IMG/VR virus record: IMGVR_UViG_2579778856_000005
Source of the DNA: a virus
Taxonomy: Duplodnaviria; Heunggongvirae; Uroviricota; Caudoviricetes
Strand: one strand, 5' to 3'
DNA: 33,871 bases
The position numbers and the translations under genes are program-made. Below are positions 1 through 32,781 of this stretch, in pieces (position 1 is the stretch's first letter; each line of letters starts with the position of its first letter). A model generated the notes under the pieces. That model did not search any database, was not told the DNA's origin, and was given only the letters and a program-made list of their open reading frames with translations.

Positions 1-1284
1 ATGGAATCCCTAACGTTACAACCCATCGCTCGTGTCGATGGCACTATTAATCTGCCCGGTTCCAAGAGCGTTTCTAACCGCGCTTTATTGCTGGCGGCAT
101 TAGCACACGGCAAAACAGTATTAACCAATCTGCTGGATAGCGATGACGTGCGCCATATGCTGAATGCATTAACAGCGTTAGGGGTAAGCTATACGCTTTC
201 AGCCGATCGTACGCGTTGCGAAATTATCGGTAACGGTGGTCCATTACACGCAGAAAGTGCCCGGGAGTTGTTCCTCGGTAACGCCGGAACGGCAATGCGT
301 CCGCTGGCGGCAGCACTTTGCCTGGGTAGCAATGATATTGTACTGAGCGGTGAACCGCGAATGAAAGAACGCCCGATTGGTCATCTGGTGGATGCGCTGC
401 GCCAGGGCGGGGCGAAGATCACTTACCTGGAACAAGAAAATTATCCGCCATTGCGTTTACAGGGCGGCTTTACTGGCGGCAACGTTGATGTTGATGGCTC
501 CGTTTCCAGCCAGTTCCTCACCGCACTGTTAATGACTGCGCCTCTTGCGCCGGAAGATACGGTGATTCGTATTAAAGGCGATCTGGTTTCTAAACCTTAT
601 ATCGATATCACCCTCAATCTGATGAAGACGTTTGGTGTTGAAATTGAAAATCAGCACTATCAACAATTTGTCGTAAAAGGGGGGCAGTCTTACCAGTCTC
701 CGGGCACTTATTTGGTTGAAGGCGATGCATCTTCGGCTTCTTATTTCCTGGCAGCAGCAGCAATCAGAGGCGGCACTGTAAAAGTGACCGGCATTGGACG
801 CAACAGTATGCAGGGTGATATTCGCTTTGCTGATGTTCTGGAAAAAATGGGCGCGACCATTTGCTGGGGCGATGATTATATTTCCTGCACGCGTGGTGAA
901 CTGAACGCCATTGATATGGATATGAACCATATTCCCGATGCGGCGATGACCATTGCCACCGCGGCGTTATTTGCAAAAGGCACCACCACGCTGCGCAATA
1001 TCTATAACTGGCGTGTTAAAGAGACCGATCGCCTGTTTGCGATGGCAACAGAACTGCGTAAAGTCGGTGCGGAAGTCGAAGAGGGGCATGATTTCATTCG
1101 CATTACGCCACCGGAAAAACTGAAATTTGCTGAGATCGCCACTTATAATGATCACCGGATGGCGATGTGTTTCTCGCTGGTCGCATTATCAGATACGCCT
1201 GTGACGATTCTTGATCCAAAATGTACCGCTAAAACTTTTCCAGACTATTTCGAGCAATTGGCGCGGATAAGTCAACCCGGCTGA
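1..1284 (+). CDS. aroA: 3-phosphoshikimate 1-carboxyvinyltransferase (EPSP synthase), complete
   Basis: 427-aa ORF beginning [37 protein letters not shown] and ending [13 protein letters not shown]; recalled as near-identical to E. coli K-12 AroA over its full length. Not verified by search. Confidence 0.97.
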
Positions 1285-9367: not shown

Positions 9368-9567
9368 GGGGCAATATCCTCTTCTGTACGGGCTTCTTCA
9401 GCCTCAATCACCGGGATCAGTAACAACAGCCCGGAGGGCAGCACCGGCGTGATGGCCACGTGCGGATTGGCGGCAATAATCCGGGGATAGCCCAGCGGGT
9501 CACCGTAGTACTGCCATGCCAGCGAATCCCAGCGCTCTCCGTCACGGGTAACATGTTCAAGAAACAT
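9355..9567 (-). CDS. Tail protein X (LysM-like)
   Basis: 70 aa from the ATG (MFLEHVTRDGERWDSLAWQYYGDPLGYPRIIAANP), a P2 gpX-type LysM fold as recalled. Confidence 0.75.
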   Translation of the reverse strand: MFLEHVTRDGERWDSLAWQYYGDPLGYPRIIAANPHVAITPVLPSGLLLLIPVIEAEEARTEEDIAPWLR

Positions 9568-10451
9568 CACACACTCCTCGTCAGTATTCTGGCGGCCATT
9601 GCACTTAATCCCGGAGACATGCGGTTGAATGCTGTTCCGACGGCGTTAAGCTGCCCGGAAACGGTATCCAGAGCACCTGCAATATTTCTTTTGTCCACAC
9701 CACTCAGCGCAGACTGTGCCTGCTGTACATACGTGGCTGCTTCGCTGGCTGTTCTGGCCAGACTGATGGCATCGGGCATGGATTCAGAGAGTGCGTTAAA
9801 CGCCGGAACACTTTTCCCCAGAGCCCCGGAGATATTACCCAGTCCGCTCATCAGCCCCGGCACACGGGTCAGTGCGACAACGGGGTTATCCTTCATTTTC
9901 TGTGTCACCCGAACGGCGCTGATAGTGGTCTGGAGTACAGACTGCGCCTGTTTCGCATAGTTGACGCCGTTGCGGATGAACTGCGCCACCCCTGAAGGTG
10001 AAGGTATGGCACCGGAGACCGCCCCGACACCCGGGAGCTTCGTGCGTATTGCCGGTGGTTGCAGAGGATTTTTCGGGTCACCGGTGTATTCCCGGAGAGA
10101 CACGGTGGCACTGACAGCCAGCACGTTGCCGGTACTGTCAGTCTGCTCGCTGGTTGCAGTCACATCGGTGATCACGAACCAGCCGCGATAGTCACCGTTG
10201 CCGAAGACCAGCGCCAGTGCCTGATGGGCTTTCATGGCTGTTCGCAGTCTCGCCAGCTCCACATCGGGTACACAATAATGCTGATGGAAAACCAGAGTTA
10301 TCTGGATTTCGTCCAGCCTGTCGCCGACGAACTGCAGACCAGGCTTACCCCCGATGCGGGCATGCTCCGCATAATCGACGCCGAACGTGGCCTCGAAGCC
10401 GTCCCAGTAGGTAATCAGCTCAAACTCAATATCACCCAGTACGGCAAACAT
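9567..10451 (-). CDS. Tail protein with P2 gpU-like N-terminal domain and a long Ala/Ser-rich C-terminal extension
   Basis: 294 aa; the N-terminal ~125 aa (GKPGLQFVG..ITL..ALALVFGNGDYRGWFVITDVTATSEQ) resembles the gpU tail-terminator family. Intact only in this copy. Confidence 0.7.
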   Translation of the reverse strand: MFAVLGDIEFELITYWDGFEATFGVDYAEHARIGGKPGLQFVGDRLDEIQITLVFHQHYCVPDVELARLRTAMKAHQALALVFGNGDYRGWFVITDVTATSEQTDSTGNVLAVSATVSLREYTGDPKNPLQPPAIRTKLPGVGAVSGAIPSPSGVAQFIRNGVNYAKQAQSVLQTTISAVRVTQKMKDNPVVALTRVPGLMSGLGNISGALGKSVPAFNALSESMPDAISLARTASEAATYVQQAQSALSGVDKRNIAGALDTVSGQLNAVGTAFNRMSPGLSAMAARILTRSV

Positions 10452-13402
10452 CAGCGGTACTCCTTACGTTGTTTCTGAGCCAGCAGACGCTCCAGCATTT
10501 TTTCCAGCTCATGCAGACTCATATTCAGGGCACCAGTCAGTCCTGCAGGCGCTGTGGTTTCCCTGCCATTGAGGAAAAACTGAGGATTAAAGCTGACCTG
10601 GATACCACCAGACGTTCCACCGCCGGTTGCAGCTGCACCACGGCCTGAATATCCGGCAGCCAGGATTTCAGGCGAGGGGATACGGGGAACATCCGGTGTC
10701 ATCTCATTTGCCAGACGTTGCCCTGGTAAAATCGATGCCCGGGTGGAGAGCGGAATAGCGGGCATGGAAGACAAACTATTGATTACGGCTCCGATCGCAT
10801 TTTTAGCAGACGACATAAACCCATTGATATCGGGCAACGGCATACTGAAGCGAACACCTGAAGTGTTATCCCGTATTTCTGGCCCCTGAATGCTCACGGG
10901 CATTCTGGGGAGCAGTTCACTGGCCATTCGCTGCCCGGCCAGAGCTGCAAGCGGAGTGGTCCGCTGCAGGCCAATGGCGGCCCCCTGCGCGATATTGTCA
11001 CCAAAGCCCATAAACACGCGGCTCGGCGAATGAATGCCCAGCTTTTCGCTGAACCAGCCACTGATGCTGTCACCCATTCCGGTTACACTGGATTTGAGCG
11101 ACTCCCATTTGTTTTTGATACCGTTAATCAGACCGTCGACAAGATGGCCACCGAAGTCGGTGAACTTTGCCGGCAGATCAACACCAAGATATTTCAGCGC
11201 AGCTGCAAAGGCTTTATAGAGCAGACCTGCCGGCGACCAGTTAATCAGCAGCTTACCAGTTCCCGCGATACCGCCGTTAAAGGCTTCCTGAATGTCAGCC
11301 CAGCACTGTTTAAACCAGCTACTGATGCTGTCACCCATTCCGGTTACACTGGATTTGAGCGACCCCCATTTGTTTTTGATACCGTTAATCAGACCGTCGA
11401 TAAGATGGCCACCGAAGTCGGTGAACTTTGCCGGCAGAGCAACGCCGAAATATTTCAGCGCAGCCGCAAAGGCTTTATAGAGCAGGCCTGCCGGCGACCA
11501 GTTAATCAGCAACTTACCAATTCCCACAATGCCGCCGTTAAAGGCTTCCTGAATGTCAGCCCAGCGCTGTTTAAACCAACCACTGACAGCCCCCCAGTTG
11601 CGGTAGATAAGGTAAGCTGCTGTCGCGACAGCGGTGATAACGAGACCGATGGGATTCATCATCAGCGCTCGCCCAATCCAGAGAACGGCACGTGCAGCGC
11701 TCATAAAACCGCGAACGAGGCTGCCCGCCAGAACTTTGCTGAGTTTCAGTCCTCCGCTGGTCAGTCGGCTGAATCCAGTGACAAGCCAGCGTAATTTGCC
11801 ACCTTCTCCGAGTGCGGTAGTCAGTCGATGCCAGTTGGTCCGGAGTAAAACAGTAGTTTTCCAGACGTTCACAAAGGGGGAAATAAGGAGATTCAGCCCC
11901 AGTTTGAGACCAATAGTCGCTATCTTAATCGCAAGGAGCGCACTGATGAGCTTAAAAGCCCCACTGACAAATTGCGGGTGAGTCGCTACCCAGTGTTTTG
12001 TCCCCTGAATGAGTGGGAGCAGTTCCTGAGTCAGAGAAATAAAAGATGGAGCTAATTGATCGCCCAGCGTAATTGCCAGATCGCGACTGCTGACCATAAG
12101 TGTTTTAGTGGCTTCAAGGGGAGATTTCAGCCGCTGATCATAAGCACTGGCAAGCAAATCGTTATCCGCAGCCCTGAGAGCACCGGCACGGATCTCTCGA
12201 TATCTGTCCATGTTGGCCAGCATCGGGCGGATAAATGCCATGACCTGCATATCCGCGAACATATCGCCCAGACCAAAGTTTTTCGCCAGAGCCTGAAGTG
12301 CCTCATCTCTTGCCGTATCATTCTTTATTTTCATGGCTGATTTGAAGCCGGCCAGCGCTTCGGGGCTTTTGGCATTGAGGTAACGTTCTATAACACTCAA
12401 CATCCCTTCAATCGGAGAGATCCCCGCAGCTTTATAACTCGCAATAGATCCCTGCAAATCAATACCCAGATCAGCAAACTGTTTCTGAGTATCGCGGGCA
12501 AAAATTTTGGTAAGAAAGTTTTTAAAATTATTGGCTGCTTCGTCGGTGGAACCTGCACCGATTTTTGCTATCTGGAGACTGGCCCCGATTTCAGCAACAG
12601 CCTCTTTTCCACTGGCAATACCCGCCATCATTGGGGCCAGGGACTGCATCCACTTGACCTGATCCGGGATTTCAAATGACCCCTGGTCACCGGCATAAGC
12701 CATAATATTCTGAACGGCACCAAAATCTCTGGCCGCGCCTTTCAGGGAGTTTTGCCAGACTGCGGCCACTTTTGCCCAGTCCTGAGCAGACGTGCGTGTT
12801 GCCGTTGCCGCGCGGGCAATATCCGGCATCAGAAAACCGATATCTGACACATTATCAATATTGTCGCTGATGAGTGAACCCACCGCCTCCTGCAGCTCAT
12901 CCTGATACTGATTGTATTTAAGCGCCCAGCCTTTTATCTGTCCGGCAAGTGCATCCCGCGTTTTATTGTCATATTTTGCGGTGATCGACATATCAATCAT
13001 TTTGTCCTGAAAAGACATGGACTGCTGAACGGCAGGGGAAACCGTATGATAAACAGTCTGTGCCATGCCATACGCTTCAATCCCCTGACCATACAGCGCC
13101 ATGCGGTTAGCTTTCAGCGCATCACTGGTAGCGGATGCCGCTGACAGACGGCGCTGCTGGCGCTCAATTTGCTCCATGGTGCGGCTTACCCGCAGCAGCT
13201 CGCTGTTGAGATGCTGCATCCGGGAAGAACCCAGTTGACCATAACGTTCTGTTGCACGGGTTAAAGCGTTCTGACGTTCCTGCAGGCGGCGTGAGGTATC
13301 GCTCAGGGAATCAAGCGCACGGCGGGTACCGCTCATTGCAGAACGGAATGTGCTGCCAATCATCCCGCCGATAACAACGCCGACTGAAAACTGTCCCGAC
13401 AT
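10451..13402 (-). CDS. Tail tape measure protein (copy 1)
   Basis: 983 aa, N-terminal coiled coil, internal 86-aa tandem repeat, GGAGG RBS. Confidence 0.9.
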   Translation of the reverse strand: MSGQFSVGVVIGGMIGSTFRSAMSGTRRALDSLSDTSRRLQERQNALTRATERYGQLGSSRMQHLNSELLRVSRTMEQIERQQRRLSAASATSDALKANRMALYGQGIEAYGMAQTVYHTVSPAVQQSMSFQDKMIDMSITAKYDNKTRDALAGQIKGWALKYNQYQDELQEAVGSLISDNIDNVSDIGFLMPDIARAATATRTSAQDWAKVAAVWQNSLKGAARDFGAVQNIMAYAGDQGSFEIPDQVKWMQSLAPMMAGIASGKEAVAEIGASLQIAKIGAGSTDEAANNFKNFLTKIFARDTQKQFADLGIDLQGSIASYKAAGISPIEGMLSVIERYLNAKSPEALAGFKSAMKIKNDTARDEALQALAKNFGLGDMFADMQVMAFIRPMLANMDRYREIRAGALRAADNDLLASAYDQRLKSPLEATKTLMVSSRDLAITLGDQLAPSFISLTQELLPLIQGTKHWVATHPQFVSGAFKLISALLAIKIATIGLKLGLNLLISPFVNVWKTTVLLRTNWHRLTTALGEGGKLRWLVTGFSRLTSGGLKLSKVLAGSLVRGFMSAARAVLWIGRALMMNPIGLVITAVATAAYLIYRNWGAVSGWFKQRWADIQEAFNGGIVGIGKLLINWSPAGLLYKAFAAALKYFGVALPAKFTDFGGHLIDGLINGIKNKWGSLKSSVTGMGDSISSWFKQCWADIQEAFNGGIAGTGKLLINWSPAGLLYKAFAAALKYLGVDLPAKFTDFGGHLVDGLINGIKNKWESLKSSVTGMGDSISGWFSEKLGIHSPSRVFMGFGDNIAQGAAIGLQRTTPLAALAGQRMASELLPRMPVSIQGPEIRDNTSGVRFSMPLPDINGFMSSAKNAIGAVINSLSSMPAIPLSTRASILPGQRLANEMTPDVPRIPSPEILAAGYSGRGAAATGGGTSGGIQVSFNPQFFLNGRETTAPAGLTGALNMSLHELEKMLERLLAQKQRKEYR
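11040..11585. repeat. 258-bp in-frame tandem repeat inside the tape measure gene (two full copies plus a partial third)
   Basis: ccagc(c/t)actgatgctgtcacccattccggttacactggatttgagcga recurs at 11055 and 11313; the protein repeat is WFKQ(R/C)WADIQEAFNGG...SVTGMGDSIS. Confidence 0.8.
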
Positions 13403-13477
13403 AGTGGTTAACCTCCGGGGAAGGTGAAAAGACGTGAGGGGATAACGCAGAACAGCCGCTACTGGCGGCTGTCTGTA

Positions 13478-13895
13478 CTATGATTTGTCGCCGTACTCGC
13501 TTTTGATTTGCTCTTCAGCCTGCTCCAGCCACATCTCCAGATCGTCAGTATCGAGGGCATCAATCTCCCCCGGCTGAAACCGGAACCATCTCGCCAGCAG
13601 CCCCTGCGCCTGCGTCAGCGCCCTGGTTGCTCTCACCCATCCCCGTGATGAGCTGAAATCGTTTCTGTAACTGCAGGTAATCAGCCAGATCCATATTGTC
13701 GAGATCTTCCGGGAGAAGACCAGTACTGCGGGCAATCAGCGGTTCGTCCCAGTCTGCCGGGTTTTTGCTGATTTTGCGCACCTGCTTCAGGTCTTTTACC
13801 GTCAGGCGTTTCAGTTCAACCAGCTCAATTCTGGTGCCTGCAGCAGTGGTGAAGGGATAAGACAATTTAAAAGTATCGGATGGGGTCTGTGACAT
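13478..13895 (-). CDS. Tail assembly chaperone, putative frameshifted long form (GT / E+E' analogue)
   Basis: A second ORF (13478-13735) overlaps the 3' end of the chaperone ORF in the +1 (equivalently -2) frame and extends it by ~28 aa of plausible protein sequence (..IDALDTDDLEMWLEQAEEQIKSEYGDKS). Confidence 0.5.
13560..13895 (-). CDS. Tail assembly chaperone (lambda G / P2 E analogue), short form
   Basis: 111 aa, acidic, between tube and tape measure; AGGAG RBS. Confidence 0.8.
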   Translation of the reverse strand: MSQTPSDTFKLSYPFTTAAGTRIELVELKRLTVKDLKQVRKISKNPADWDEPLIARSTGLLPEDLDNMDLADYLQLQKRFQLITGMGESNQGADAGAGAAGEMVPVSAGGD

Positions 13896-13949
13896 GATTG
13901 TGCTCCTGTGTAAGTTCAGGGCAGTATGTCGGGAGAAGCGCGTGACGGA

Positions 13950-13990
13950 TATTAAAGGAGATTAAGAAGAAGGGGCCGGAGCCCCTGTGA
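13950..13990 (-). terminator. Putative intrinsic terminator/attenuator between tube region and chaperone
   Basis: Perfect palindrome AGGGGC-CGGA-GCCCCT (13971-13986) followed on the minus-strand transcript by a T-rich run (ttcttcttaatctccttt). Confidence 0.5.
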
Positions 13991-13992
13991 TG

Positions 13993-14274
13993 TCAGCAAG
14001 TGCGAAACCCCTTGCAGTTACGCAGGAAAGCGATGAGAAGCGTCTTTCCCTCAGATTTGCCGATGCCGGAGAACCAGTGGTCGGGAGGCTCCCATGCTTC
14101 AATCAAATCCGCCAGTTTGCGGGCCTTTGAACGTGTGCAGTCAATCGGGTCATTGGTTTTACGGGTATTAAAAAGGGTTTCCACCCCCGGAATATCAAGG
14201 AGGGTAAACCACGTACCATTTGACATGCCCAGTGCCGCACATCGTCCTCCTTTATCCGTCAGTTCAACACTCAC
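13993..14274 (-). CDS. Hypothetical small protein between tube and chaperone
   Basis: 93-codon open frame in a 380-bp gap; start codon ambiguous (GTG at 14274, or an internal ATG with a distant AAGGAGGA). Confidence 0.35.
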   Translation of the reverse strand: MSVELTDKGGRCAALGMSNGTWFTLLDIPGVETLFNTRKTNDPIDCTRSKARKLADLIEAWEPPDHWFSGIGKSEGKTLLIAFLRNCKGFRTC

Positions 14275-14276
14275 CG

Positions 14277-14798
14277 TCAGCCCCCGATATTGATACGGTA
14301 GTCAGTCAGTTGATCAACACCGCCGACCCGGAAGATGTTGGCCAGATAGTCCAGTTGCAGCAGCTCTTCACCATCCAGTACCTGTCTGATATACGTGCAG
14401 GTGAAGCTACTGGAGAACTCGGCGTTCTCGTGCTGTTTGAACGTCCCCAGCGGGTTCTTCTTGAACATAATCGTCAGGAAGGTGACCAGCGGGATTTCGT
14501 CAATCAGCCCCTGCGAGCTGTAGCGCTGGACGCTGGAACGACACTGCAGTGCCAGCGACCTGTACGGGTTCGCGGCAGACAGCATCGCATCGCGGTAAAA
14601 GCTGTTCCATTTGATTTCGCCTTCCAGCTTGTCAAAACCAGCCGGGAGTTCCACCTTACCCACCATCCCCAGCGCCTTGTGTTCCTGCATAATCATGGAG
14701 ACATCGGGGAGTTTAACTTCCTCAGCCCGTCCCAGCAGGTTAGTACCATCCAGATAGATGTTGGCATTCGTGATGCGGTTTATCTCAATCTTTGACAT
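14277..14798 (-). CDS. Tail tube protein (copy 1)
   Basis: 173 aa, ATGA overlap with the sheath stop; contractile-tail tube family by size and position. Confidence 0.9.
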   Translation of the reverse strand: MSKIEINRITNANIYLDGTNLLGRAEEVKLPDVSMIMQEHKALGMVGKVELPAGFDKLEGEIKWNSFYRDAMLSAANPYRSLALQCRSSVQRYSSQGLIDEIPLVTFLTIMFKKNPLGTFKQHENAEFSSSFTCTYIRQVLDGEELLQLDYLANIFRVGGVDQLTDYRINIGG

Positions 14799-16089
14799 CA
14801 GTTGCCCCCTTTCAGGGTTAACAGGTATTCCGAGGTGATCTCAGTCTCAAACGTCAGTCGCTCCAGCGGCGGTGGTGGCGTATATTTGTAGCTCAGCAAC
14901 AGGTGCCCGGCGGCCAGCTCCGTCTCCGGATTGCGGGCCGGATCAAACCAGCAACGGAAGCCCAGTACCGCACCATCACCAGTCATTTTGCGACCGTAGG
15001 CGTTGACCGACTCCGTCAGTGCATCAATCAGCGCCTGAGTAATCGGCATGTCGATGTACTGCTGGCTGAAATAACGAATGGACTCGTTGATCACATCACC
15101 GGTGCGGCGAACGTTCTCAAAGTTACGCATATGGGTGACCGTTGGCCATGCTGCCGTCCGGTTACCCCACAGACGAAGGCCGCTGCCGTAACTGCTGAAT
15201 ACCGTGGTGATCCCCTGTTCGTTAAGCAGGTTCACCTCACTCTGCGGGTCATCAATCATCGCGGACAGCTGGCGCTCCACGCCGGTGATCCCCAGAATCT
15301 CCTGATTGGAGGATGACCACCAGTAGCCCTTGTCCAGATCGACTCTGGCACGCAGACCTGCTGCACGCTGGCTGAGCGGCTCCAGACGCTCTGTGTTTGT
15401 CACCGGGTCATATACCTTCACATGCGGATAGCACAGACGGACGCGGTCGGAGCTGGTATTGAAGTTGATGGTGCCTTCCGGGCCACGACCTGCCAGAGCC
15501 TGTGCAAAGGTGGTACCGACAGGCGCATCAATGTAGGTTACCGCGCCCAGCTTCTCTGCCATGGCGATAAGCTCAACTGCGACACTCTTCTGGGTGCAGA
15601 ACACCGGCGCAATCAGAATTTTGGCGAAATAGCCGTACAGGTTGAAGCTGTCGTTAAGCAGCTTCATGCCGGTTCGGTTTCCGGCGCTGTTCACCCCGCC
15701 GATGATGTCCGCCGCAGTCACCTTCGACGGGTCCGCGTACTCATAGCTCACCTTCACGCTGCCACCGGCCTCAATAGCCTTGCCCAGGTTCGTGAGCACA
15801 CCCGCCTGCGCATCAACACGGTAGTCCGTGTTCGCCGTGTGGGTGGTGCTGCCTTCACTGTTTTTCACCACCACATTAGCGACAACCGGATGCGCCAGTC
15901 TGGCCTGCCCTGTCGATTTGTCAAAGGTAACCACCTCATCCTCGATCGCCGTTTTATGTTTCGCCGGGTCGAGGACGTTAATGACCAGAACGGTGCCTGC
16001 ACCATGGTCATAAATCGCATCCAGCGCCTGCGGAATGGTAAAGCCGGTGAACTGGCTGCCAAATGCCGCTGCGTCTTTCTCAGACAGGC
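14798..16089 (-). pseudogene. Tail sheath protein, 5'-truncated fragment (lacks ~45 N-terminal codons)
   Basis: Matches the intact sheath at 20649-22076 up to the duplication junction at 16089, then reads into out-of-frame U-derived sequence. Confidence 0.8.
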
Positions 16090-16302
16090 TGTTCGCAGTC
16101 TCGCCAGCTCCACATCGGGTACACAATAATGCTGATGGAAAACCAGAGTTATCTGGATTTCGTCCAGCCTGTCGCCGACGAACTGCAGACCAGGCTTACC
16201 CCCGATGCGGGCATGCTCCGCATAATCGACGCCGAACGTGGCCTCGAAGCCGTCCCAGTAGGTAATCAGCTCAAACTCAATATCACCCAGTACGGCAAAC
16301 AT
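16090..16302 (-). pseudogene. gpU-like tail protein, 3'-truncated fragment (first 71 codons)
   Basis: Identical to the N-terminus of the 9567-10451 protein (MFAVLGDIEFELITYWDGFEATFGVDYAEHARIGGKPGLQFVG...) then fused out of frame to sheath antisense sequence. Confidence 0.8.
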
Positions 16303-19253
16303 CAGCGGTACTCCTTACGTTGTTTCTGAGCCAGCAGACGCTCCAGCATTTTTTCCAGCTCATGCAGACTCATATTCAGGGCACCAGTCAGTCCTGCAGG
16401 CGCTGTGGTTTCCCTGCCATTGAGGAAAAACTGAGGATTAAAGCTGACCTGGATACCACCAGACGTTCCACCGCCGGTTGCAGCTGCACCACGGCCTGAA
16501 TATCCGGCAGCCAGGATTTCAGGCGAGGGGATACGGGGAACATCCGGTGTCATCTCATTTGCCAGACGTTGCCCTGGTAAAATCGATGCCCGGGTGGAGA
16601 GCGGAATAACGGGCATGGAAGACAAACTATTGATTACGGCTCCGATCGCATTTTTAGCAGACGACATAAACCCATTGATATCGGGCAACGGCATACTGAA
16701 GCGAACACCTGAAGTGTTATCCCGTATTTCTGGCCCCTGAATGCTCACGGGCATTCTGGGGAGCAGTTCACTGGCCATTCGCTGCCCGGCCAGAGCTGCA
16801 AGCGGAGTGGTCCGCTGCAGGCCAATGGCGGCCCCCTGCGCGATATTGTCACCAAAGCCCATAAACACGCGGCTCGGCGAATGAATGCCCAGCTTTTCGC
16901 TGAACCAGCCACTGATGCTGTCGCCCATTCCGGTTACACTGGATTTGAGCGACTCCCATTTGTTTTTGATACCGTTAATCAGACCATCGACAAGATGGCC
17001 ACCGAAGTCGGTAAACTTTGCCGGCAGATCAACACCAAGATATTTCAGCGCAGCTGCAAAGGCTTTATAGAGCAGACCTGCCGGCGACCAGTTAATCAGC
17101 AGCTTACCAGTTCCCGCGATACCGCCGTTAAAGGCTTCCTGAATGTCAGCCCAGCATTGTTTAAACCAGCTACTGATGCTGTCACCCATTCCGGTTACAC
17201 TGGATTTGAGCGACCCCCATTTGTTTTTGATACCGTTAATCAAACCGTCGATAAGATGGCCACCGAAGTCGGTGAACTTTGCCGGCAGAGTAACGCCGAA
17301 ATATTTCAGCGCAGCCGCAAAGGCTTTATAGAGCAGGCCTGCCGGCGACCAGTTAATCAGCAGCTTACCAGTTCCCGCGATACCGCCGTTAAAGGCTTCC
17401 TGAATGTCAGCCCAGCGCTGTTTAAACCAGCCACTGACTGCCCCCCAGTTGCGGTAGATAAGGTAAGCTGCTGCCGCGACAGCGGTGATAACGAGACCGA
17501 TGGGATTCATCATCAGCGCTCGCCCAATCCAGAGAACGGCACGTGCAGCGCTCATAAAACCGCGAACGAGGCTGCCCGCCAGAACTTTGCTGAGTTTCAG
17601 TCCTCCGCTGGTCAGTCGGCTGAATCCAGTGACAAGCCAGCGTAATTTGCCACCTTCTCCGAGTGCGGTAGTCAGTCGATGCCAGTTGGTCCGGAGTAAA
17701 ACAGCAGTTTTCCAGACGTTCACAAAGGGGGAAATAAGGAGATTCAGCCCCAGTTTGAGACCAACAGTCGCTATCTTAATCGCAAGGAGCGCACTGATGA
17801 GCTTAAAAGCCCCACTGACAAATTGCGGGTGAGTCGCCACCCAGTGTTTTGTCCCCTGAATGAGTGGGAGCAAGTCCTGAGTCAGAGAAATAAAAGATGG
17901 AGCTAATTGATCGCCCAGCGTAATTGCCAGATCGCGACTGCTGACCATAAGTGTTTTAGTGGCTTCAAGGGGAGATTTCAGCCGCTGATCATAAGCACTG
18001 GCAAGCAAATCGTTATCCGCAGCCCTGAGAGCACCGGCACGGATCTCTCGATATCTGTCCATGTTGGCCAGCATCGGGCGGATAAATGCCATGACCTGCA
18101 TATCCGCGAACATATCGCCCAGACCAAAGTTTTTCGCCAGAGCCTGAAGTGCCTCATCTCTTGCCGTATCATTCTTTATTTTCATGGCTGATTTGAAGCC
18201 GGCCAGCGCTTCGGGGCTTTTGGCATTGAGGTAACGTTCTATAACACTCAACATCCCTTCAATCGGAGAGATCCCCGCAGCTTTATAACTCGCAATAGAT
18301 CCCTGCAAATCAATACCCAGATCAGCAAACTGTTTCTGAGTATCGCGGGCAAAAATTTTGGTAAGAAAGTTTTTAAAATTATTGGCTGCTTCGTCGGTGG
18401 AACCTGCACCGATTTTTGCTATCTGGAGACTGGCCCCGATTTCAGCAACAGCCTCTTTTCCACTGGCAAGACCCGCCATCATTGGGGCCAGGGACTGCAT
18501 CCACTTGACCTGATCCGGGATTTCAAATGACCCCTGGTCACCGGCATAAGCCATAATATTCTGAACGGCACCAAAATCTCTGGCCGCACCTTTCAGGGAG
18601 TTTTGCCAGACTGCGGCCACTTTTGCCCAGTCCTGAGCAGACGTGCGTGTTGCCGTTGCCGCGCGGGCAATATCCGGCATCAGAAAACCGATATCTGACA
18701 CATTATCAATATTGTCGCTGATGAGTGAACCCATCGCCTCCTGCAGCTCATCCTGATACTGATTGTATTTAAGCGCCCAGCCTTTTATCTGTCCGGCAAG
18801 TGCATCCCGCGTTTTATTGTCATATTTTGCGGTGATCGACATATCAATCATTTTGTCCTGAAAAGACATGGACTGCTGAACGGCAGGGGAAACCGTATGA
18901 TAAACAGTCTGTGCCATGCCATACGCTTCAATCCCCTGACCATACAGCGCCATGCGGTTAGCTTTCAGCGCATCACTGGTAGCGGATGCCGCTGACAGAC
19001 GGCGCTGCTGGCGCTCAATTTGCTCCATGGTGCGGCTTACCCGCAGCAGCTCGCTGTTGAGATGCTGCATCCGGGAAGAACCCAGTTGACCATAACGTTC
19101 TGTTGCACGGGTTAAAGCGTTCTGACGTTCCTGCAGGCGGCGTGAGGTATCGCTCAGGGAATCAAGCGCACGGCGGGTACCGCTCATTGCAGAACGGAAT
19201 GTGCTGCCAATCATCCCGCCGATAACAACGCCGACTGAAAACTGTCCCGACAT
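16302..19253 (-). CDS. Tail tape measure protein (copy 2)
   Basis: 983 aa; about 9 amino-acid differences from copy 1. Confidence 0.9.
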   Translation of the reverse strand: MSGQFSVGVVIGGMIGSTFRSAMSGTRRALDSLSDTSRRLQERQNALTRATERYGQLGSSRMQHLNSELLRVSRTMEQIERQQRRLSAASATSDALKANRMALYGQGIEAYGMAQTVYHTVSPAVQQSMSFQDKMIDMSITAKYDNKTRDALAGQIKGWALKYNQYQDELQEAMGSLISDNIDNVSDIGFLMPDIARAATATRTSAQDWAKVAAVWQNSLKGAARDFGAVQNIMAYAGDQGSFEIPDQVKWMQSLAPMMAGLASGKEAVAEIGASLQIAKIGAGSTDEAANNFKNFLTKIFARDTQKQFADLGIDLQGSIASYKAAGISPIEGMLSVIERYLNAKSPEALAGFKSAMKIKNDTARDEALQALAKNFGLGDMFADMQVMAFIRPMLANMDRYREIRAGALRAADNDLLASAYDQRLKSPLEATKTLMVSSRDLAITLGDQLAPSFISLTQDLLPLIQGTKHWVATHPQFVSGAFKLISALLAIKIATVGLKLGLNLLISPFVNVWKTAVLLRTNWHRLTTALGEGGKLRWLVTGFSRLTSGGLKLSKVLAGSLVRGFMSAARAVLWIGRALMMNPIGLVITAVAAAAYLIYRNWGAVSGWFKQRWADIQEAFNGGIAGTGKLLINWSPAGLLYKAFAAALKYFGVTLPAKFTDFGGHLIDGLINGIKNKWGSLKSSVTGMGDSISSWFKQCWADIQEAFNGGIAGTGKLLINWSPAGLLYKAFAAALKYLGVDLPAKFTDFGGHLVDGLINGIKNKWESLKSSVTGMGDSISGWFSEKLGIHSPSRVFMGFGDNIAQGAAIGLQRTTPLAALAGQRMASELLPRMPVSIQGPEIRDNTSGVRFSMPLPDINGFMSSAKNAIGAVINSLSSMPVIPLSTRASILPGQRLANEMTPDVPRIPSPEILAAGYSGRGAAATGGGTSGGIQVSFNPQFFLNGRETTAPAGLTGALNMSLHELEKMLERLLAQKQRKEYR
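16891..17436. repeat. 258-bp tandem repeat inside tape measure gene, copy 2
   Basis: Same repeat as 11040-11585, offset by 5,851 bp. Confidence 0.8.
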
Positions 19254-19410
19254 AGTGGTTAACCTCCGGGGAAGGTGAAAAGACGTGAGGGGATAACGCA
19301 GAACAGCCGCTACTGGCGGCTGTCTGTACTATGATTTGTCGCCGTACTCGCTTTTGATTTGCTCTTCAGCCTGCTCCAGCCACATCTCCAGATCGTCAGT
19401 ATCGAGGGCA

Positions 19411-19746
19411 TCAATCTCCCCCGGCTGAAACCGGAACCATCTCGCCAGCAGCCCCTGCGCCTGCGTCAGCGCCCTGGTTGCTCTCACCCATCCCCGTGAT
19501 GAGCTGAAATCGTTTCTGTAACTGCAGGTAATCAGCCAGATCCATATTGTCGAGATCCTCCGGGAGAAGACCAGTACTGCGGGCAATCAGCGGTTCGTCC
19601 CAGTCTGCCGGGTTTTTGCTGATTTTGCGCACCTGCTTCAGGTCTTTTACCGTCAGGCGTTTCAGTTCAACCAGCTCAATTCTGGTGCCTGCAGCAGTGG
19701 TGAAGGGATAAGACAATTTAAAAGTATCGGATGGGGTCTGTGACAT
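19411..19746 (-). CDS. Tail assembly chaperone (copy 2)
   Basis: Identical to 13560-13895; overlapping +1-frame ORF at 19329-19586. Confidence 0.8.
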   Translation of the reverse strand: MSQTPSDTFKLSYPFTTAAGTRIELVELKRLTVKDLKQVRKISKNPADWDEPLIARSTGLLPEDLDNMDLADYLQLQKRFQLITGMGESNQGADAGAGAAGEMVPVSAGGD

Positions 19747-19843
19747 GATTGTGCTCCTGTGTAAGTTCAGGGCAGTATGTCGGGAGAAGCGCGTGACGGA
19801 TATTAAAGGAGATTAAGAAGAAGGGGCCGGAGCCCCTGTGATG

Positions 19844-20125
19844 TCAGCAAGTGCGAAACCCCTTGCAGTTACGCAGGAAAGCGATGAGAAGCGTCTTTCC
19901 CTCAGATTTGCCGATGCCGGAGAACCAGTGGTCGGGAGGCTCCCATGCTTCAATCAAATCCGCCAGTTTGCGGGCCTTTGAACGTGTGCAGTCAATCGGG
20001 TCATTGGTTTTACGGGTATTAAAAAGGGTTTCCACCCCCGGAATATCAAGGAGGGTAAACCACGTACCATTTGACATGCCCAGTGCCGCACATCGTCCTC
20101 CTTTATCCGTCAGTTCAACACTCAC
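19844..20125 (-). CDS. Hypothetical small protein (copy 2)
   Basis: Duplicate of 13993-14274. Confidence 0.35.
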   Translation of the reverse strand: MSVELTDKGGRCAALGMSNGTWFTLLDIPGVETLFNTRKTNDPIDCTRSKARKLADLIEAWEPPDHWFSGIGKSEGKTLLIAFLRNCKGFRTC

Positions 20126-20127
20126 CG

Positions 20128-20649
20128 TCAGCCCCCGATATTGATACGGTAGTCAGTCAGTTGATCAACACCGCCGACCCGGAAGATGTTGGCCAGATAG
20201 TCCAGTTGCAGCAGCTCTTCACCATCCAGTACCTGTCTGATATACGTGCAGGTGAAGCTACTGGAGAACTCGGCGTTCTCGTGCTGTTTGAACGTCCCCA
20301 GCGGGTTCTTCTTGAACATAATCGTCAGGAAGGTGACCAGCGGGATTTCGTCAATCAGCCCCTGCGAGCTGTAGCGCTGGACGCTGGAACGACACTGCAG
20401 TGCCAGCGACCTGTACGGGTTCGCGGCAGACAGCATCGCATCGCGGTAAAAGCTGTTCCATTTGATTTCGCCTTCCAGTTTGTCAAAACCAGCCGGGAGT
20501 TCCACCTTACCCACCATCCCCAGCGCCTTGTGTTCCTGCATAATCATGGAGACATCGGGGAGTTTGACTTCCTCAGCCCGTCCCAGCAGGTTAGTACCAT
20601 CCAGATAGATGTTGGCATTCGTGATGCGGTTTATCTCAATCTTTGACAT
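20128..20649 (-). CDS. Tail tube protein (copy 2)
   Basis: Protein identical to copy 1. Confidence 0.9.
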   Translation of the reverse strand: MSKIEINRITNANIYLDGTNLLGRAEEVKLPDVSMIMQEHKALGMVGKVELPAGFDKLEGEIKWNSFYRDAMLSAANPYRSLALQCRSSVQRYSSQGLIDEIPLVTFLTIMFKKNPLGTFKQHENAEFSSSFTCTYIRQVLDGEELLQLDYLANIFRVGGVDQLTDYRINIGG

Positions 20650-22076
20650 CAGTTGCCCCCTTTCAGGGTTAACAGGTATTCCGAGGTGATCTCAGTCTCA
20701 AACGTCAGTCGCTCCAGCGGCGGTGGTGGCGTATATTTGTAGCTCAGCAACAGGTGCCCGGCGGCCAGCTCCGTCTCCGGATTGCGGGCCGGATCAAACC
20801 AGCAACGGAAGCCCAGTACCGCACCATCACCAGTCATTTTGCGACCGTAGGCGTTGACCGACTCCGTCAGTGCATCAATCAGCGCCTGAGTAATCGGCAT
20901 GTCGATGTACTGCTGGCTGAAATAACGAATGGACTCGTTGATCACATCACCGGTGCGGCGAACGTTCTCAAAGTTACGCATATGGGTGACCGTTGGCCAT
21001 GCTGCCGTCCGGTTACCCCACAGACGAAGGCCGCTGCCGTAACTGCTGAATACCGTGGTGATCCCCTGTTCGTTAAGCAGGTTCACCTCACTCTGCGGGT
21101 CATCAATCATCGCGGACAGCTGGCGCTCCACGCCGGTGATCCCCAGAATCTCCTGATTGGAGGATGACCACCAGTAGCCCTTGTCCAGATCGACTCTGGC
21201 ACGCAGACCTGCTGCACGCTGGCTGAGCGGCTCCAGACGCTCTGTGTTTGTCACCGGGTCATATACCTTCACATGCGGATAGCACAGACGGACGCGGTCG
21301 GAGCTGGTATTGAAGTTGATGGTGCCTTCCGGGCCACGACCTGCCAGAGCCTGTGCAAAGGTGGTACCGACAGGCGCATCAATGTAGGTTACCGCGCCCA
21401 GCTTCTCTGCCATGGCGATAAGCTCAACTGCGACACTCTTCTGGGTGCAGAACACCGGCGCAATCAGAATTTTGGCGAAATAGCCGTACAGGTTGAAGCT
21501 GTCGTTAAGCAGCTTCATGCCGGTTCGGTTTCCGGCGCTGTTCCCCCCGCCGATGATGTCCGCCGCAGTCACCTTCGACGGGTCCGCGTACTCATAGCTC
21601 ACCTTCACGCTGCCACCGGCCTCAATAGCCTTGCCCAGGTTCGTGAGCACACCCGCCTGCGCATCAACACGGTAGTCCGTGTTCGCCGTGTGGGTGGTGC
21701 TGCCTTCACTGTTTTTCACCACCACATTAGCGACAACCGGATGCGCCAGTCTGGCCTGCCCTGTCGATTTGTCAAAGGTAACCACCTCATCCTCGATCGC
21801 CGTTTTATGTTTCGCCGGGTCGAGGACGTTAATGACCAGAACGGTGCCTGCACCATGGTCATAAATCGCATCCAGCGCCTGCGGAATGGTAAAGCCGGTG
21901 AACTGGCTGCCAAATGCCGCTGCGTCTTTCTCAGACAGGCACTGTACCAGCGTATTGACATCCCCCATCGGGGCGGTACCAATCAGGCCAATAACGGCAG
22001 ATTTCACCGTTTTAACCGGGCGGGCACCGTTTTCCACCTCAATGGTTTCGGGACCATGCAGATAGTTAGCTGCCAT
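20649..22076 (-). CDS. Tail sheath protein (intact copy)
   Basis: 475 aa, MAANYLHGPETIEVENGARPVKTVKSAVIGLIGTAP..; contractile sheath family. Confidence 0.9.
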   Translation of the reverse strand: MAANYLHGPETIEVENGARPVKTVKSAVIGLIGTAPMGDVNTLVQCLSEKDAAAFGSQFTGFTIPQALDAIYDHGAGTVLVINVLDPAKHKTAIEDEVVTFDKSTGQARLAHPVVANVVVKNSEGSTTHTANTDYRVDAQAGVLTNLGKAIEAGGSVKVSYEYADPSKVTAADIIGGGNSAGNRTGMKLLNDSFNLYGYFAKILIAPVFCTQKSVAVELIAMAEKLGAVTYIDAPVGTTFAQALAGRGPEGTINFNTSSDRVRLCYPHVKVYDPVTNTERLEPLSQRAAGLRARVDLDKGYWWSSSNQEILGITGVERQLSAMIDDPQSEVNLLNEQGITTVFSSYGSGLRLWGNRTAAWPTVTHMRNFENVRRTGDVINESIRYFSQQYIDMPITQALIDALTESVNAYGRKMTGDGAVLGFRCWFDPARNPETELAAGHLLLSYKYTPPPPLERLTFETEITSEYLLTLKGGN

Positions 22077-23227: not shown

Positions 23228-23228
23228 G

Positions 23229-23567: not shown

Positions 23568-23576
23568 AACGCCTCC

Positions 23577-26335: not shown

Positions 26336-27157
26336 TTATCCTCTCAGTTCCTGTTGTGCCAGTGGCTGAAGCGTACCCTGATAGCGGGCCAGGTCGGGAC
26401 GGTATGCTGCCCCCGGAGCATAAGACCAGCCGACGTCGGTGGTCACCTTCGTGGTGCCGGTATTAAAGGTGGCCACGTTCCGCATTTCGCCGGTTTTCTC
26501 TGAGACCAGTTTCAGTTCCTGGCCCATGGCAGAGCCGGAGCTGATAACCTTCAGGCCACGGGCACGGACATCCGCCGCACTCAGGGCAATCACACTACAG
26601 CGGCAGCGCCAGCCGTTCGGCGGGTAAAATGCCTGCCAGAACGGGTCATCCCAGCGCAGCACCAGACCATGCAGCGCCAGATGGCTCCTGCGGGTATGGC
26701 TGTCGTTGATGCCGGTATACATCCAGTACGGCCTGTCGTCGACGTTTTCCATCTGCTCCGCCCAACGACCGGCGCTGTAGAGTACGGACATATTGGTGCG
26801 AAAGATGGTATCGAGCCGCCACGGACTGCCCTGCTGAATGGTGACCGGCTCACCCGTTACCGGGTCAGTCGTGTCACGTGGTCCCCACCATCCCTTACGC
26901 TTCAGCACCGGCTCCAGCTCCTGCCGGAACCAGCGATCGGTTTTTCCTTCATCGACAGCCTGCTGCAGTGCCCCGCGAATATCTTCCAGAATATCCAGGC
27001 GGGTCACTTTAGCAACGGTAAAGGCGCGGGCATGGGCCTCCTGCCACATTTCTTCCCAGTCCCAGGTAATCTGATATCCTTTGGACTTCAGGTAGTTGAT
27101 TGCCCGCTTCGGGGGAAGCGTCATGCAGTACGCCAGTTCAGCCGTTGTCACGCTCAT
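26336..27157 (-). CDS. Minor head protein (Mu F-like head morphogenesis family)
   Basis: ~273 aa from the ATG at 27157 (GGGGA RBS); the track ORF begins 9 codons earlier at a TTG; overlaps the portal 3' end. Confidence 0.8.
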   Translation of the reverse strand: MSVTTAELAYCMTLPPKRAINYLKSKGYQITWDWEEMWQEAHARAFTVAKVTRLDILEDIRGALQQAVDEGKTDRWFRQELEPVLKRKGWWGPRDTTDPVTGEPVTIQQGSPWRLDTIFRTNMSVLYSAGRWAEQMENVDDRPYWMYTGINDSHTRRSHLALHGLVLRWDDPFWQAFYPPNGWRCRCSVIALSAADVRARGLKVISSGSAMGQELKLVSEKTGEMRNVATFNTGTTKVTTDVGWSYAPGAAYRPDLARYQGTLQPLAQQELRG

Positions 27158-28634
27158 GCAGACGTCCCCGGATATTTGCCACAAAGAGAATGCGGGCCAG
27201 CCGCTCCTGCAGATCGTCCGTGTTCATCTGAGGGTAGAGCTCCGCCAGTTCGCCCAGCAGCTCAGACGGGTTAACCCCGTTTTCGACCCGCTTAAACAGA
27301 GGTGCCAGGACGGGTTCCAGCGTGCCATTTAACACACCTCCGTTCATCAGAATGTCCAGCGCGTCGTCAAGCTGCTGCTGAGCCTGAATATCGGCATCAA
27401 TCGCCTCGGCAAATGACAGCGGCAGCATGTTATTCTGGCGTTCCGACGGTGGTGTCTCGTCAATATCGCCGTCCTGCAGCTGGTACTCACGCTTAAAGTA
27501 TTGCGGGGTCAGACGCAGACCCGCCCGGGTGAGTTTTTCGTCGCGGGTGGCGCGGGTGTCATCAATGGTCTCCTGTTCCCACATGGCCCAGACCGGACAC
27601 GGCACATCGCCGAAGTTCAGGGTGACCACCGTTCTGATAACCTGATTCACTGCTGCCTGAATGATGTCCGCATCCGCATCGCGGATATCAGCCGTTACCT
27701 CCAGCCCGGCCTGTGCAGAGGCCTTGTTACTGTTCGCTTCCGTGGTCTGATTCTGACCGAGTAATGCAATGGAGATCTCACTGCGTGACAGTGTGATCAG
27801 CTCGCGAAATACCTCGCTGCTGTCTGCCTTGCCATCCGCTGCCCTGAGCTCAATACTGCTGTCATCGGGGATGGCGGCCACCGCGTCCTCCACCATCTGC
27901 TCCATGGAGTCCAGCAGTTTTTCAATCTCTGCATCATTTGCGCCCCTCGGGTGCTTACCGATCACCCACGGGGAGCCAAACTTTTCGGCAAAGCGGAGCC
28001 AGAATTTCATCCCGCCTTTCTTGAAGGCGACCGGCCAGAAGCACATGGACAGGTCCGGGAAACCGTAAGGATTGTCATACGAGGCATCCTGTGCCGGCAC
28101 CACGAATTTTGACGGTGACAGCAGCTCACCCTCCACACCCGCATCACGCGCCCGGAAGCGCAGGCAGTTGTCCGTATCAAACTGAAACCACTCAGGCGGT
28201 TTGCCGACAATATCCGTCACTGCCCACGCCCTGACCGAACGGCCCCACATGATTTCACAGGGCTGATACCCGTAGAGCACGGCATCGCTCATTTCACCGA
28301 TGATGCGGGACAGATCCAGATCGTCGAGCATGTCGCGGATGAAACGGAAGACCCGGGCAGAAGCGTGACCGCGCTCCAGTCCACGCTCCAGCGATTTGAG
28401 CGCTGCTTTACGTCTGCGGATACAGCCCCCGACCAGCGGGTCGGTGCGCAGTTCGCGGTAGATACGGATATCCCGTCCCTGAGCCTTGAGAATGGGATCA
28501 GGATTGGGCAGATACATGCCCAGTCCGTAAAAGTCGATCGCGCGGCTGCGGGAGGCAATCTGCGCGGTCAGTGATTTCTGAGGCTCAGAAAAAGCAACAA
28601 ATTCATCGGGTGAAACCCAGATACCCCTCGCCAT
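27138..28634 (-). CDS. Portal protein (Mu H-like)
   Basis: 498 aa; ATGA overlap with the terminase stop. Confidence 0.9.
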   Translation of the reverse strand: MARGIWVSPDEFVAFSEPQKSLTAQIASRSRAIDFYGLGMYLPNPDPILKAQGRDIRIYRELRTDPLVGGCIRRRKAALKSLERGLERGHASARVFRFIRDMLDDLDLSRIIGEMSDAVLYGYQPCEIMWGRSVRAWAVTDIVGKPPEWFQFDTDNCLRFRARDAGVEGELLSPSKFVVPAQDASYDNPYGFPDLSMCFWPVAFKKGGMKFWLRFAEKFGSPWVIGKHPRGANDAEIEKLLDSMEQMVEDAVAAIPDDSSIELRAADGKADSSEVFRELITLSRSEISIALLGQNQTTEANSNKASAQAGLEVTADIRDADADIIQAAVNQVIRTVVTLNFGDVPCPVWAMWEQETIDDTRATRDEKLTRAGLRLTPQYFKREYQLQDGDIDETPPSERQNNMLPLSFAEAIDADIQAQQQLDDALDILMNGGVLNGTLEPVLAPLFKRVENGVNPSELLGELAELYPQMNTDDLQERLARILFVANIRGRLHERDNG

Positions 28635-30229
28635 CAGAATCCCTCCAGCATACGGGCCGCCTGACGACGACGGCGTGAGCTTGCCTTCACCGGCCCTTTG
28701 TTAATTTCACGGCTGGCGAAATACGCCAGCGCCAGTGCGATGGCTGAATCCCCGTGACGTTTACCACCATCAGCCTTTGCTTTTGAGCGTTGCTCCGGCA
28801 CGCGGGGGACACCGTTCACCACCTGAACGGCCCGCAGGTCATCCAGTGTGTCTTCATCCTTTGGTAAGTCCACCAGGTTGCCGTCTTCCAGTGCAGCTTT
28901 GACCGGAGGCATATGCTCCCGGTACCAGCCTTCGGTTGGCATCACCTGCTGAACCCGGCCGGAGCCGTAGCGCTGCATGGCGTATTCAGCCAGATAGGCA
29001 CCATTACCACGGGCATCAAACGCTGCACCCAGCAGACCGGGCAGGCCATCCATCAGATACCAGGTGATTTGCTCCTGCTGTCTGAACGGCACGTTACGCA
29101 GCTCCAGTACGAATGGCACGCGTCGTACCAGGTTCTTCTCCTGCAGCAGGGGATAGTCCACCGACAAATCACCGCTACGGCCAAAGTCGCGCCCCAGGAA
29201 AGAGCGGGCATCAGTGGGGAGTGCCTCCAGCAATGGTTTCAGATACTCATCAAGCCAGTCCTGCGTCTCGCGGAAGCGAACCTCATCAGACAGCAGTTCA
29301 TAACCTTCCTTGCAGGTCAGACGCAATACCGGCGTATCAGCGGACATGCGGGACTCTATCAGGGCACGGGACAGCCAGGCACCGCCACCGTTGGCCGGAA
29401 TACAGTCAAGCTCTTCGGATGCGCCGGCACCGTAGAATTTGTACACCGATGCCATCCAGGCCTGCTCGGATGCCTCCGACCATTCCTTCCCGGTGCGCAG
29501 ACAGACGCGCCGGAACAGCCCCTCAGATACGGCTTCCCGGAAAGTGATGCGATGTATGCTGCCTCCCTGACGTCCGGCACGGATATCCCCGATAAGCGTA
29601 TTGAACGGATTGTCGTCACCGTCATGGGTGGAGATAACGCGTACCTTTCCCCCCCAGATAAGCATCGCCAGCGCCGCTTTCAGCAGTTCGTCCAGTTGCT
29701 CATGGAACGCCGCTTCGTCGATAACAATAATACCCTGACGGCCACGCAGGTTAGACGGGCGGCTGGAGAGCGCAACAATACGAAAGCCGGAGTCAGGAAA
29801 TTTGATGGTGTAAGTCTTGATGTGTTTGTCGTCGTCGTCCTCTTCCCAGAATCCTTCTTCAATTTCACTGGCCGCATAGTTGAATGCCCGTGCCCACATC
29901 GCACACGCCTGAATGTATTCGACGGTCATGTCCTGGTTATAAGCGATGTAATACACATTCATCCCGCCTGCTGGCGCAGAAGAGGCGGCGGTCAGTACGT
30001 TATCGGATGCCTCAGCCCATGTAATACCGGTACGACGGCTCTTTTCTATCACCTTAAGCGGAGAGGTGTCTGCCACCCAGCGCTGCTGGTAAGGCAACAG
30101 AACGGGAGGGGCATCCAGCGCCGAGGTATCAGGCAAAACGGGAGCAAGGTTATTCCTCCCGTCCATGGGACTCATCCCTTCGGGGCCGCCGCCAGCGGCG
30201 TTTAAAATCACTCCGGATGATTTTGTCAT
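28634..30229 (-). CDS. Terminase large subunit
   Basis: 531 aa with an ATPase region (..GIIVIDEAAFHEQ.. Walker B-like) and a C-terminal nuclease half; directly precedes the portal. Confidence 0.85.
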   Translation of the reverse strand: MTKSSGVILNAAGGGPEGMSPMDGRNNLAPVLPDTSALDAPPVLLPYQQRWVADTSPLKVIEKSRRTGITWAEASDNVLTAASSAPAGGMNVYYIAYNQDMTVEYIQACAMWARAFNYAASEIEEGFWEEDDDDKHIKTYTIKFPDSGFRIVALSSRPSNLRGRQGIIVIDEAAFHEQLDELLKAALAMLIWGGKVRVISTHDGDDNPFNTLIGDIRAGRQGGSIHRITFREAVSEGLFRRVCLRTGKEWSEASEQAWMASVYKFYGAGASEELDCIPANGGGAWLSRALIESRMSADTPVLRLTCKEGYELLSDEVRFRETQDWLDEYLKPLLEALPTDARSFLGRDFGRSGDLSVDYPLLQEKNLVRRVPFVLELRNVPFRQQEQITWYLMDGLPGLLGAAFDARGNGAYLAEYAMQRYGSGRVQQVMPTEGWYREHMPPVKAALEDGNLVDLPKDEDTLDDLRAVQVVNGVPRVPEQRSKAKADGGKRHGDSAIALALAYFASREINKGPVKASSRRRRQAARMLEGF

Positions 30230-32055: not shown

Positions 32056-32779
32056 AACTGCTGCCTCCCCATGTGAGATATCGCGGTGCCAGTTCGCGCA
32101 GGATGCGCTGCGGATAATGGCGGTTCTCCCGCCAGCTGGCAGTGCTGCGTCCGGCATTCACCGTGGCGACATGACCAAACCAGCGGGTGCTGTCCAGCCC
32201 TTTTTGTGATGCAAGCCGCCTGTCCCGCTGTACCCAGCCCAGACCACCGTTATAGCCCGACAGTGTCATGGCCATACGCTCGCAGTCACTGGCGGCGCTG
32301 ACGCGCTGCCACAGCCAGCGGTCATAGCTGACCAGCGCCCGGATGGCCCATGCCGGATTAAATGGCTCACGGCTGTTAAGCCCCGGCATCAACTGACTTA
32401 TCCAGTCGGCGGTGGCGGGCATGAACTGCGCCAGTCCCTGAGCGCCAACCGGCGAGATCGCATCAGGTCGCCAGCCGCTTTCCTGATGCAGTTGCGCAGC
32501 GAAATCAGCCACCGGCGCAGACAGTCCCCATTCAAGCCGGGCATTACGGATCACATCATCGCGATACTGCAGCGCTGCCTGCGGAGGCTGCGCTGCGCGG
32601 GCCTGACTGAAGAAGCCGCCACACCAGAGCAACATTGCGACAAAGAATACCCGTGCCATATGAACCAGAAAGGTCCCGGCGCGGACTGACAGGCGTTCGG
32701 TTCTGATGAAGACCCTAAAGGCTTCGAAAGCCAGTTTCAGGGACATGCATACAATCCAGGTGATCTGCGGCCAGTTCAT
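32039..32779 (-). CDS. Endolysin, lytic transglycosylase (SLT domain)
   Basis: Contains EsGwRPDAiSPvGAqGLaQfMPaTA, the SLT catalytic-Glu region. ATG at 32779 lies 2 nt after the holin-like stop. Alternative ATG at 32659 would give a classic Sec signal peptide (MARVFFVAMLLWCGGFFSQARA). Confidence 0.8.
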   Translation of the reverse strand: MNWPQITWIVCMSLKLAFEAFRVFIRTERLSVRAGTFLVHMARVFFVAMLLWCGGFFSQARAAQPPQAALQYRDDVIRNARLEWGLSAPVADFAAQLHQESGWRPDAISPVGAQGLAQFMPATADWISQLMPGLNSREPFNPAWAIRALVSYDRWLWQRVSAASDCERMAMTLSGYNGGLGWVQRDRRLASQKGLDSTRWFGHVATVNAGRSTASWRENRHYPQRILRELAPRYLTWGGSSCVASG

Positions 32780-32781
32780 GA

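Follow-up and report, generated by a model that had tools for sequence, protein, structure and literature searches.

The 5.85-kb tandem duplication of tail genes in the window, by which we mean the whole 33,871-nt stretch of prophage DNA analysed here, is best read as a heterotype false duplication produced during the assembly or scaffolding of GCA_000692435.1. From the sequence comparisons described below, we put the probability of this reading at roughly 0.88. Most likely, neither the duplicated tail module nor the truncated sheath gene and the U stub that accompany it are real features. The first-pass annotation of this DNA had described a real tandem duplication formed by illegitimate recombination. 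That claim was not supported, because the deposited record has an N at the join, the two copies carry alleles that circulate in other genomes, and the junction was present in no other assembly searched. The evidence supports the third alternative that the annotation had offered, an assembly chimera of two related prophages. What is seen also matches the circumstance that it had named as speaking against a real duplication, namely an assembler's mishandling of two prophage loci.

Exact matches of both of its tape measure proteins traced the window to draft scaffold KK736311.1 (1.43 Mb) of this assembly. Positions 1–2000 showed 0 mismatches to Escherichia coli strain 4/1-1, and the host gene aroA marks the chromosomal site of the prophage as aroA–ycaL, where strain 4/1-1 also carries a prophage of the window type. 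The element is a Mu-like prophage with a P2-type tail, shares 99.5% identity with Escherichia phage PhiKM (PQ738613.1, filed under Bcepmuvirus), and belongs to a type of phage found in about 640 of 5,426 complete E. coli genomes. Annotation of the near-identical prophages in strains 4/1-1 and S7 includes a DDE transposase, a MuB-like ATPase, Gam and Mor, and such prophages are inserted at two unrelated sites, aroA–ycaL and yeiB. For the comparisons below, haplotype X was defined as the prophage of strain 4/1-1 at the aroA site and haplotype Y as the prophage of strain S7 at the yeiB site. The complete genome of S7 contains two prophages, an X-like one at aroA–ycaL and Y at yeiB, with one tail block each. 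Searches with the flanks of the repeat returned 713–714 matching places in 641–642 records, which suggests that about one carrier genome in ten, having more than one matching place, harbours a second related copy.

The aroA–ycaL prophages of 4/1-1 and S7 share both insertion site and host flank with the window, and the prophages of 4/1-1 and S7 and phage PhiKM share its gene order at 99.4–99.9% identity. In this order, Mu-type lysis and head genes (Mu gp27, portal, F, gp36 and gp37) are followed by a P2-type tail comprising sheath, tube, E/E′, tape measure, U, X, D, baseplate and an invertible tail fibre. All three relatives have a single tail block, and the window differs from them only by the extra unit and by Y-type patches. 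Precomputed Pfam assignments for the source scaffold included the Mu-type head and packaging families Phage_Mu_Gp27, Portal_Mu, Phage_Mu_F, Phage_Mu_Gp36 and Gp37. Pfam hits within the window cover the P2-type tail module (sheath FI, tube FII, E/E′ chaperone, tape measure, U, X and D), whose genes in the window all lie on the minus strand. The earlier gene identifications were essentially right, since Pfam likewise gives GpU, tape measure, TAC_7, tube FII, sheath, tail X and GPD. The coordinates are collected in Table 1.

Table 1. Features of the window, in window coordinates.
Feature	Position	Strand	Basis or remark
Host gene aroA	1..1284	+	427-aa ORF; annotated in L003 and L009
GPD-like hub	8213-9367	-	Pfam
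Tail protein X	9355-9570	-	Pfam
Full-length P2 GpU-like tail gene	9567..10451	-	PF06995, E = 7e-39; left boundary of copy A (10236) lies inside
Copy A	10236-16086		End of left contig; 16086 is the join base, N in the deposited scaffold; includes the U 5′ part
Tape measure A	10451-13402	-	Pfam
Allelic patch in tape measure gene	11072..12023	-	19 of the 27 A/B differences; throughout, Y in copy A and X in copy B
E′ frame, 85-codon ORF	13478-13735	-	Other frame; overlaps the E chaperone ORF
E chaperone, TAC_7	13560-13895	-	Pfam
orf93			Within copy A
Tube FII, copy A	14277-14798	-	Pfam
Sheath without its 5′ end	14798-16126	-	Pfam; copy A part runs from 14798 to the contig end
Apparent U stub ORF, 145 aa	15865-16302	-	Equals full-length U for 72 residues, then out of frame
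Copy B	16087-21937		Start of right contig; 16087 is the first base after the N; includes the U 5′ part and chaperones
Tape measure B	16302-19253	-	Pfam
Tube FII, copy B	20128-20649	-	Pfam
Intact sheath	20649-22076	-	Pfam; mostly within copy B
X/Y-alternating stretch, Mu F and portal genes	26567..28799		11 runs, no private sites
Holin-SLT stretch	32141..33145		Y-type at all 38 X/Y sites

Several features of these genes were observed in passing. The overlap of the E and E′ frames (13478–13895) has a layout that would match the programmed-frameshift E/E′ chaperone pair of P2. Positions 1540–5556 form an invertible tail-fibre region with several cassettes, including an ORF for a Hin/Gin-type recombinase (1540–2241; the CDS in relatives is 573 bp). 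Three plus-strand tail-fibre cassettes start with segments of 229–274 nt (2176–2404, 2615–2888 and 3129–3357), each of which is an inverted repeat of 4466/4511–4739 inside the minus-strand tail-fibre gene 4219–5556. The arrangement of the cassettes is unlike that in 4/1-1 and S7, as expected for inversion states. Within the tail-fibre gene, at 4898–5401, a 168-bp (56-codon) unit occurs in three tandem copies with 100%, 84% and 61% identity to the reference copy.

Ungapped self-comparison of the window at an offset of 5,851 bp resolved two co-linear units, copies A and B, with 0 indels and 27 substitutions (23 transitions and 4 transversions); the constant offset and co-linearity described in the first-pass annotation are therefore borne out for the window as given. 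In the primary reading frames, 16 of the substitutions were synonymous and 11 nonsynonymous, the latter comprising 10 in the tape measure and one (V>G) in the sheath, and one more amino-acid change, K>R, fell in the E′ chaperone-extension frame. About nine tape measure differences had been claimed where we counted 10, and the single differences claimed for the sheath and the chaperone extension were both recovered. The allelic patch that holds most of the substitutions overlaps an internal tandem repeat of the tape measure gene. This 261-bp (87-codon) repeat occurs in both units (11052–11586 and 16903–17437) with about 94% identity between its members. The PhiKM record has a sequencing gap at the same repeat, which marks it as a known trouble spot for short-read assembly. 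Copy B is identical to the sister repeat at six sites (11512, 11520, 11526, 11528, 11531 and 11579). Conversion between the tape measure's own 261-bp repeats was considered as the cause of the clustered differences and rejected, because the alleles concerned are those of intact haplotypes in other genomes.

At the boundary between the units, the sheath copy lacks its first ~46 codons, and the U stub runs into a chimeric ORF. These had been reported as a 5′-truncated sheath and a 71-codon U stub; both can be read in the letters of the window (with a U match of 72 residues), although they are most likely contig ends and not genes. An exact-protein look-up of the 145-aa chimeric ORF returned no record, probably because the N breaks this ORF in the deposited sequence.

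The window was base-for-base identical to the deposited loci L004 and L006 except at position 16086, where it shows an A and the deposited scaffold has an N, reading ...TCTCAGAC N GGCTGTTCGC... (the 31-mer spanning the junction is TCTTTCTCAGACAGGCTGTTCGCAGTCTCGC). The A in the window is therefore a stand-in. This N is the sole one in the ~29 kb covered by the two loci, and it falls exactly on the boundary between copies A and B. The GGC that follows it continues the sheath sequence in register, a 3-bp match with a chance expectation of 1/64, and the fourth matching base, the A, only stands in for the N, so that the microhomology claimed for the junction shrinks to three bases. The sequenced microhomology junction placed at 16087–16089 by the first-pass annotation was consequently not borne out, and under false duplication the GGC match is a mild coincidence. 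Because the same scaffold also has gaps of 100 N and of thousands of N, the lone N at the join may denote an ambiguous base and not a formal gap. A genuine illegitimate recombination event requires a continuously sequenced novel junction, where the deposited record has an N, and a heterotype false duplication requires a gap or an unknown base between the adjacent copies, as found at 16086. When a 400-bp junction probe was used, the two halves were joined in 0 of the 636 complete E. coli genomes that matched both of them and in 0 phage records, and the exact 32-base junction had no match in the genome, viral and metagenome contig collections. The lack of a match in these contig collections shows only that the junction is unique.

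Comparison of the two units with the haplotypes accounted for nearly all of their differences. Copy A is mainly Y, with 5 mismatches to S7 (Y) and 22 to 4/1-1 (X), and copy B is mainly X, with 5 mismatches to 4/1-1 and 24 to S7. Copy A also showed 6 mismatches to L005, an unrelated single-copy gut-metagenome scaffold in which the exact tape measure A protein occurs within an ordinary tail module. Within the unit, 27 sites separate X from Y. At 26 of these, one copy has the X allele and the other the Y allele, with Y in copy A at 22 sites and in copy B at 4. The only private difference between the copies is at 15693/21544, where copy A and all four references have A and the C of copy B changes sheath codon 178 (V>G); either a private mutation or a base error may account for it. 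The four sites with swapped alleles (10758, 12619, 12737 and 14715) were at first taken as assembler phase switches, a reading that was softened because the S7 aroA prophage and L005 show natural mosaics. Since 26 of the 27 differences are alleles of circulating haplotypes, they do not represent independent divergence after an in situ duplication. The copies thus have the two-haplotype variants that a heterotype false duplication requires; the origin from a single template that a genuine duplication requires was not observed, because 26 differences are pre-existing alleles and one is private. On this evidence, the sample would simply hold both haplotypes, each represented once.

Natural exchange between such prophages was also apparent. 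The S7 aroA copy (L009) is Y-type at 7 of the 27 sites of the unit and shares its D protein (WP_096944866.1) with the yeiB copy (L002), which suggests natural gene conversion between co-resident Mu-like prophages in S7. Given these mosaics, part of the X/Y blend of the window could be biological, and not every phase switch in the window should therefore be put down to the assembler.

The blend of alleles extends beyond the repeat. In a three-way comparison of ~20.5 kb of flank, 719 variable sites were X or Y, with few exceptions at the alignment edge. By segment, 92 of 97 variable sites in 5100–10235 (the other 5 at the alignment edge, 5099) and 77 of 77 in 21938–30100 were X or Y, and the 550 variable sites in 30000–33871 consisted of 498 X and 52 Y. 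Alternating X and Y runs in the flanks were rejected as proof of recombination, because a three-taxon tree also predicts interleaving. The argument instead rests on the lack of private sites and on the X/Y blend at 26.5–28.9 kb, which was found in no complete genome (best match, 99.3%). With no private sites and a local X–Y divergence of ~2%, these data point to the window being a mixture of haplotypes. In the exact-protein look-up, the tape measure B and SLT proteins occurred in KK736311.1 only. Judged by its alleles, the comparison shows the prophage sequence of the scaffold to be an X/Y blend.

A further trace of the second haplotype was found by following KK736311.1 past the window (locus L008, extended window coordinates 33872–42779). 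The end of the window abuts a 100-N gap exactly, and the gap is followed by a 1,145-bp orphan contig encoding holin and SLT and then by at least 7,663 N. The orphan contig duplicates window positions 32096–33240, 12 kb away from the unit. Its identity to X is 100%, and at each of the 38 sites where it differs from the window the window has the Y allele; both haplotypes are therefore present outside the 5.85-kb unit. The contig is a second, unambiguous case of an alternate-haplotype contig placed beside its homologue in the same prophage. The run of at least 7,663 N occupies the expected place of the ~11-kb early (transposase) region. The first-pass annotation had argued that the extra 5.85 kb would exceed a Mu-type headful. 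This argument is moot, because the interval between the host genes aroA and ycaL is ~37.2 kb in single-copy relatives (S7) and at least 7.6 kb of N stand in the scaffold in place of the early region.

Taken as a heterotype false duplication, the record could have arisen in the following way. The isolate would carry two near-identical Mu-like prophages with P2-like tails, haplotype X between aroA and ycaL and haplotype Y at a second site, as in S7. Reads from the two would have been partly collapsed into a blended consensus, but between the interiors of the U and sheath genes both versions would have been kept as the overlapping ends of two contigs, the left one ending in the sheath interior and the right one beginning in the U interior. 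The ~5.85-kb overlap was presumably left unmerged because of the 27 allelic differences, and the contigs would then have been abutted with a single N, which may represent a zero or negative gap or a gap fill that stayed unclosed. The GGC match would be due to chance, and the truncated sheath and the U stub would be contig ends. In ALLPATHS-LG scaffolds, contigs that overlap with negative gap sizes do occur (PMC5368935). The closest likeness is to the heterotype false duplications described by Rhie et al. (2021, Nature 592:737, PMC8081667), in which divergent versions are placed as separate, adjacent, gap-separated contigs; as here, they are read as tandem or segmental duplications, and the copies carry haplotype-specific variants. 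Those cases concern diploid parental haplotypes, whereas here two co-resident, near-identical prophages of a haploid bacterium would be involved, and, unlike in those cases, the gap is a single N that was turned into a base during preparation of the window.

Among the alternatives, a real heteroallelic tandem duplication fares best, although we consider it improbable. It supposes a 3-bp illegitimate join between co-resident prophages or their copies during replication, sheath interior to U interior, at which one base happened to be uncalled. In genuine microhomology tandem duplications of bacterial chromosomes and phages, the junction is sequenced and the copies are identical at birth. The window resembles them in its head-to-tail repeat of several kb and in a novel join of unrelated gene interiors with few shared bases, and differs from them in having an N at the join and, as its copies, two alleles that existed beforehand. 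Such an event is consistent with the co-linearity of the units without indels, with the intact tape measure ORFs in both, with the GGC in register with the sheath after the N, with the evident presence of a Y-type phage genome in the isolate as a possible partner, and with the retention of one intact copy of every essential tail gene. It gives no reason, however, for an uncallable base exactly at a unique real junction, and homologous exchange between partners with 99.5% identity should far outcompete a 3-bp illegitimate join. It also requires three copies of the unit, a tandem pair and a third in the second prophage, yet only two haplotypes were assembled, complementary at 26 of 27 sites. The clear misplacement of an alternate-haplotype contig nearby on the same scaffold and the failure to find the junction in any other assembly searched, including the complete genomes of S7 and 4/1-1, in which the locus lacks the duplication and each prophage has one tail block, argue in the same direction. 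If the join were nevertheless real and had formed through 3–4 bp, the prophage would have two functional, allelically different sets of tape measure, chaperone and tube genes, would measure ~43 kb, beyond its own headful packaging, and would show a Mu-like phage caught in the act of duplicating a module.

A mixed culture or contaminated library, in which two E. coli strains contributed one version of the prophage each, is less probable still, and the duplication would remain an artefact in that case. The same X/Y blend and retained alternate-haplotype contig would be expected from it. On the other hand, the scaffold length of 1.43 Mb and the identity of the host flank to that of 4/1-1 suggest that the assembly is clean and comes from a single strain. 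Because complete genomes with two such prophages exist (S7), and about one carrier in ten suggests a second copy, a second prophage is the simpler source of the second haplotype.

The least probable alternative, an old in situ tandem duplication whose copies diverged by mutation or of which one was overwritten by gene conversion from a related phage, fits the resemblance of the substitutions to natural variation in their transition bias and synonymous share, but it is contradicted by differences that, with one private exception, distinguish circulating haplotypes, by the complementarity of the copies, which non-reciprocal gene conversion would not leave, by the N between the copies and the orphan contig close by, and by the expectation that loss or homogenisation would overtake a 5.85-kb direct repeat with 99.5% identity long before it reached 0.46% divergence, tandem repeats being subject to RecA-dependent loss; the first-pass proposal of an old duplication, or of a copy replaced from a related phage, was accordingly not borne out.

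Returning to the heterotype false duplication, the repeat in the window does not matter as biology, since a duplicated tail module most likely does not exist. It does serve as a caution for records of this kind. Where an isolate carries two near-identical prophages, false duplications of the haplotype type are possible in draft bacterial scaffolds, and when an N is silently replaced by a base, a scaffold join can mimic a microhomology junction. In addition, chimeric proteins such as tape measure B, SLT and the X/Y-blend portal enter protein databases as unique sequences.
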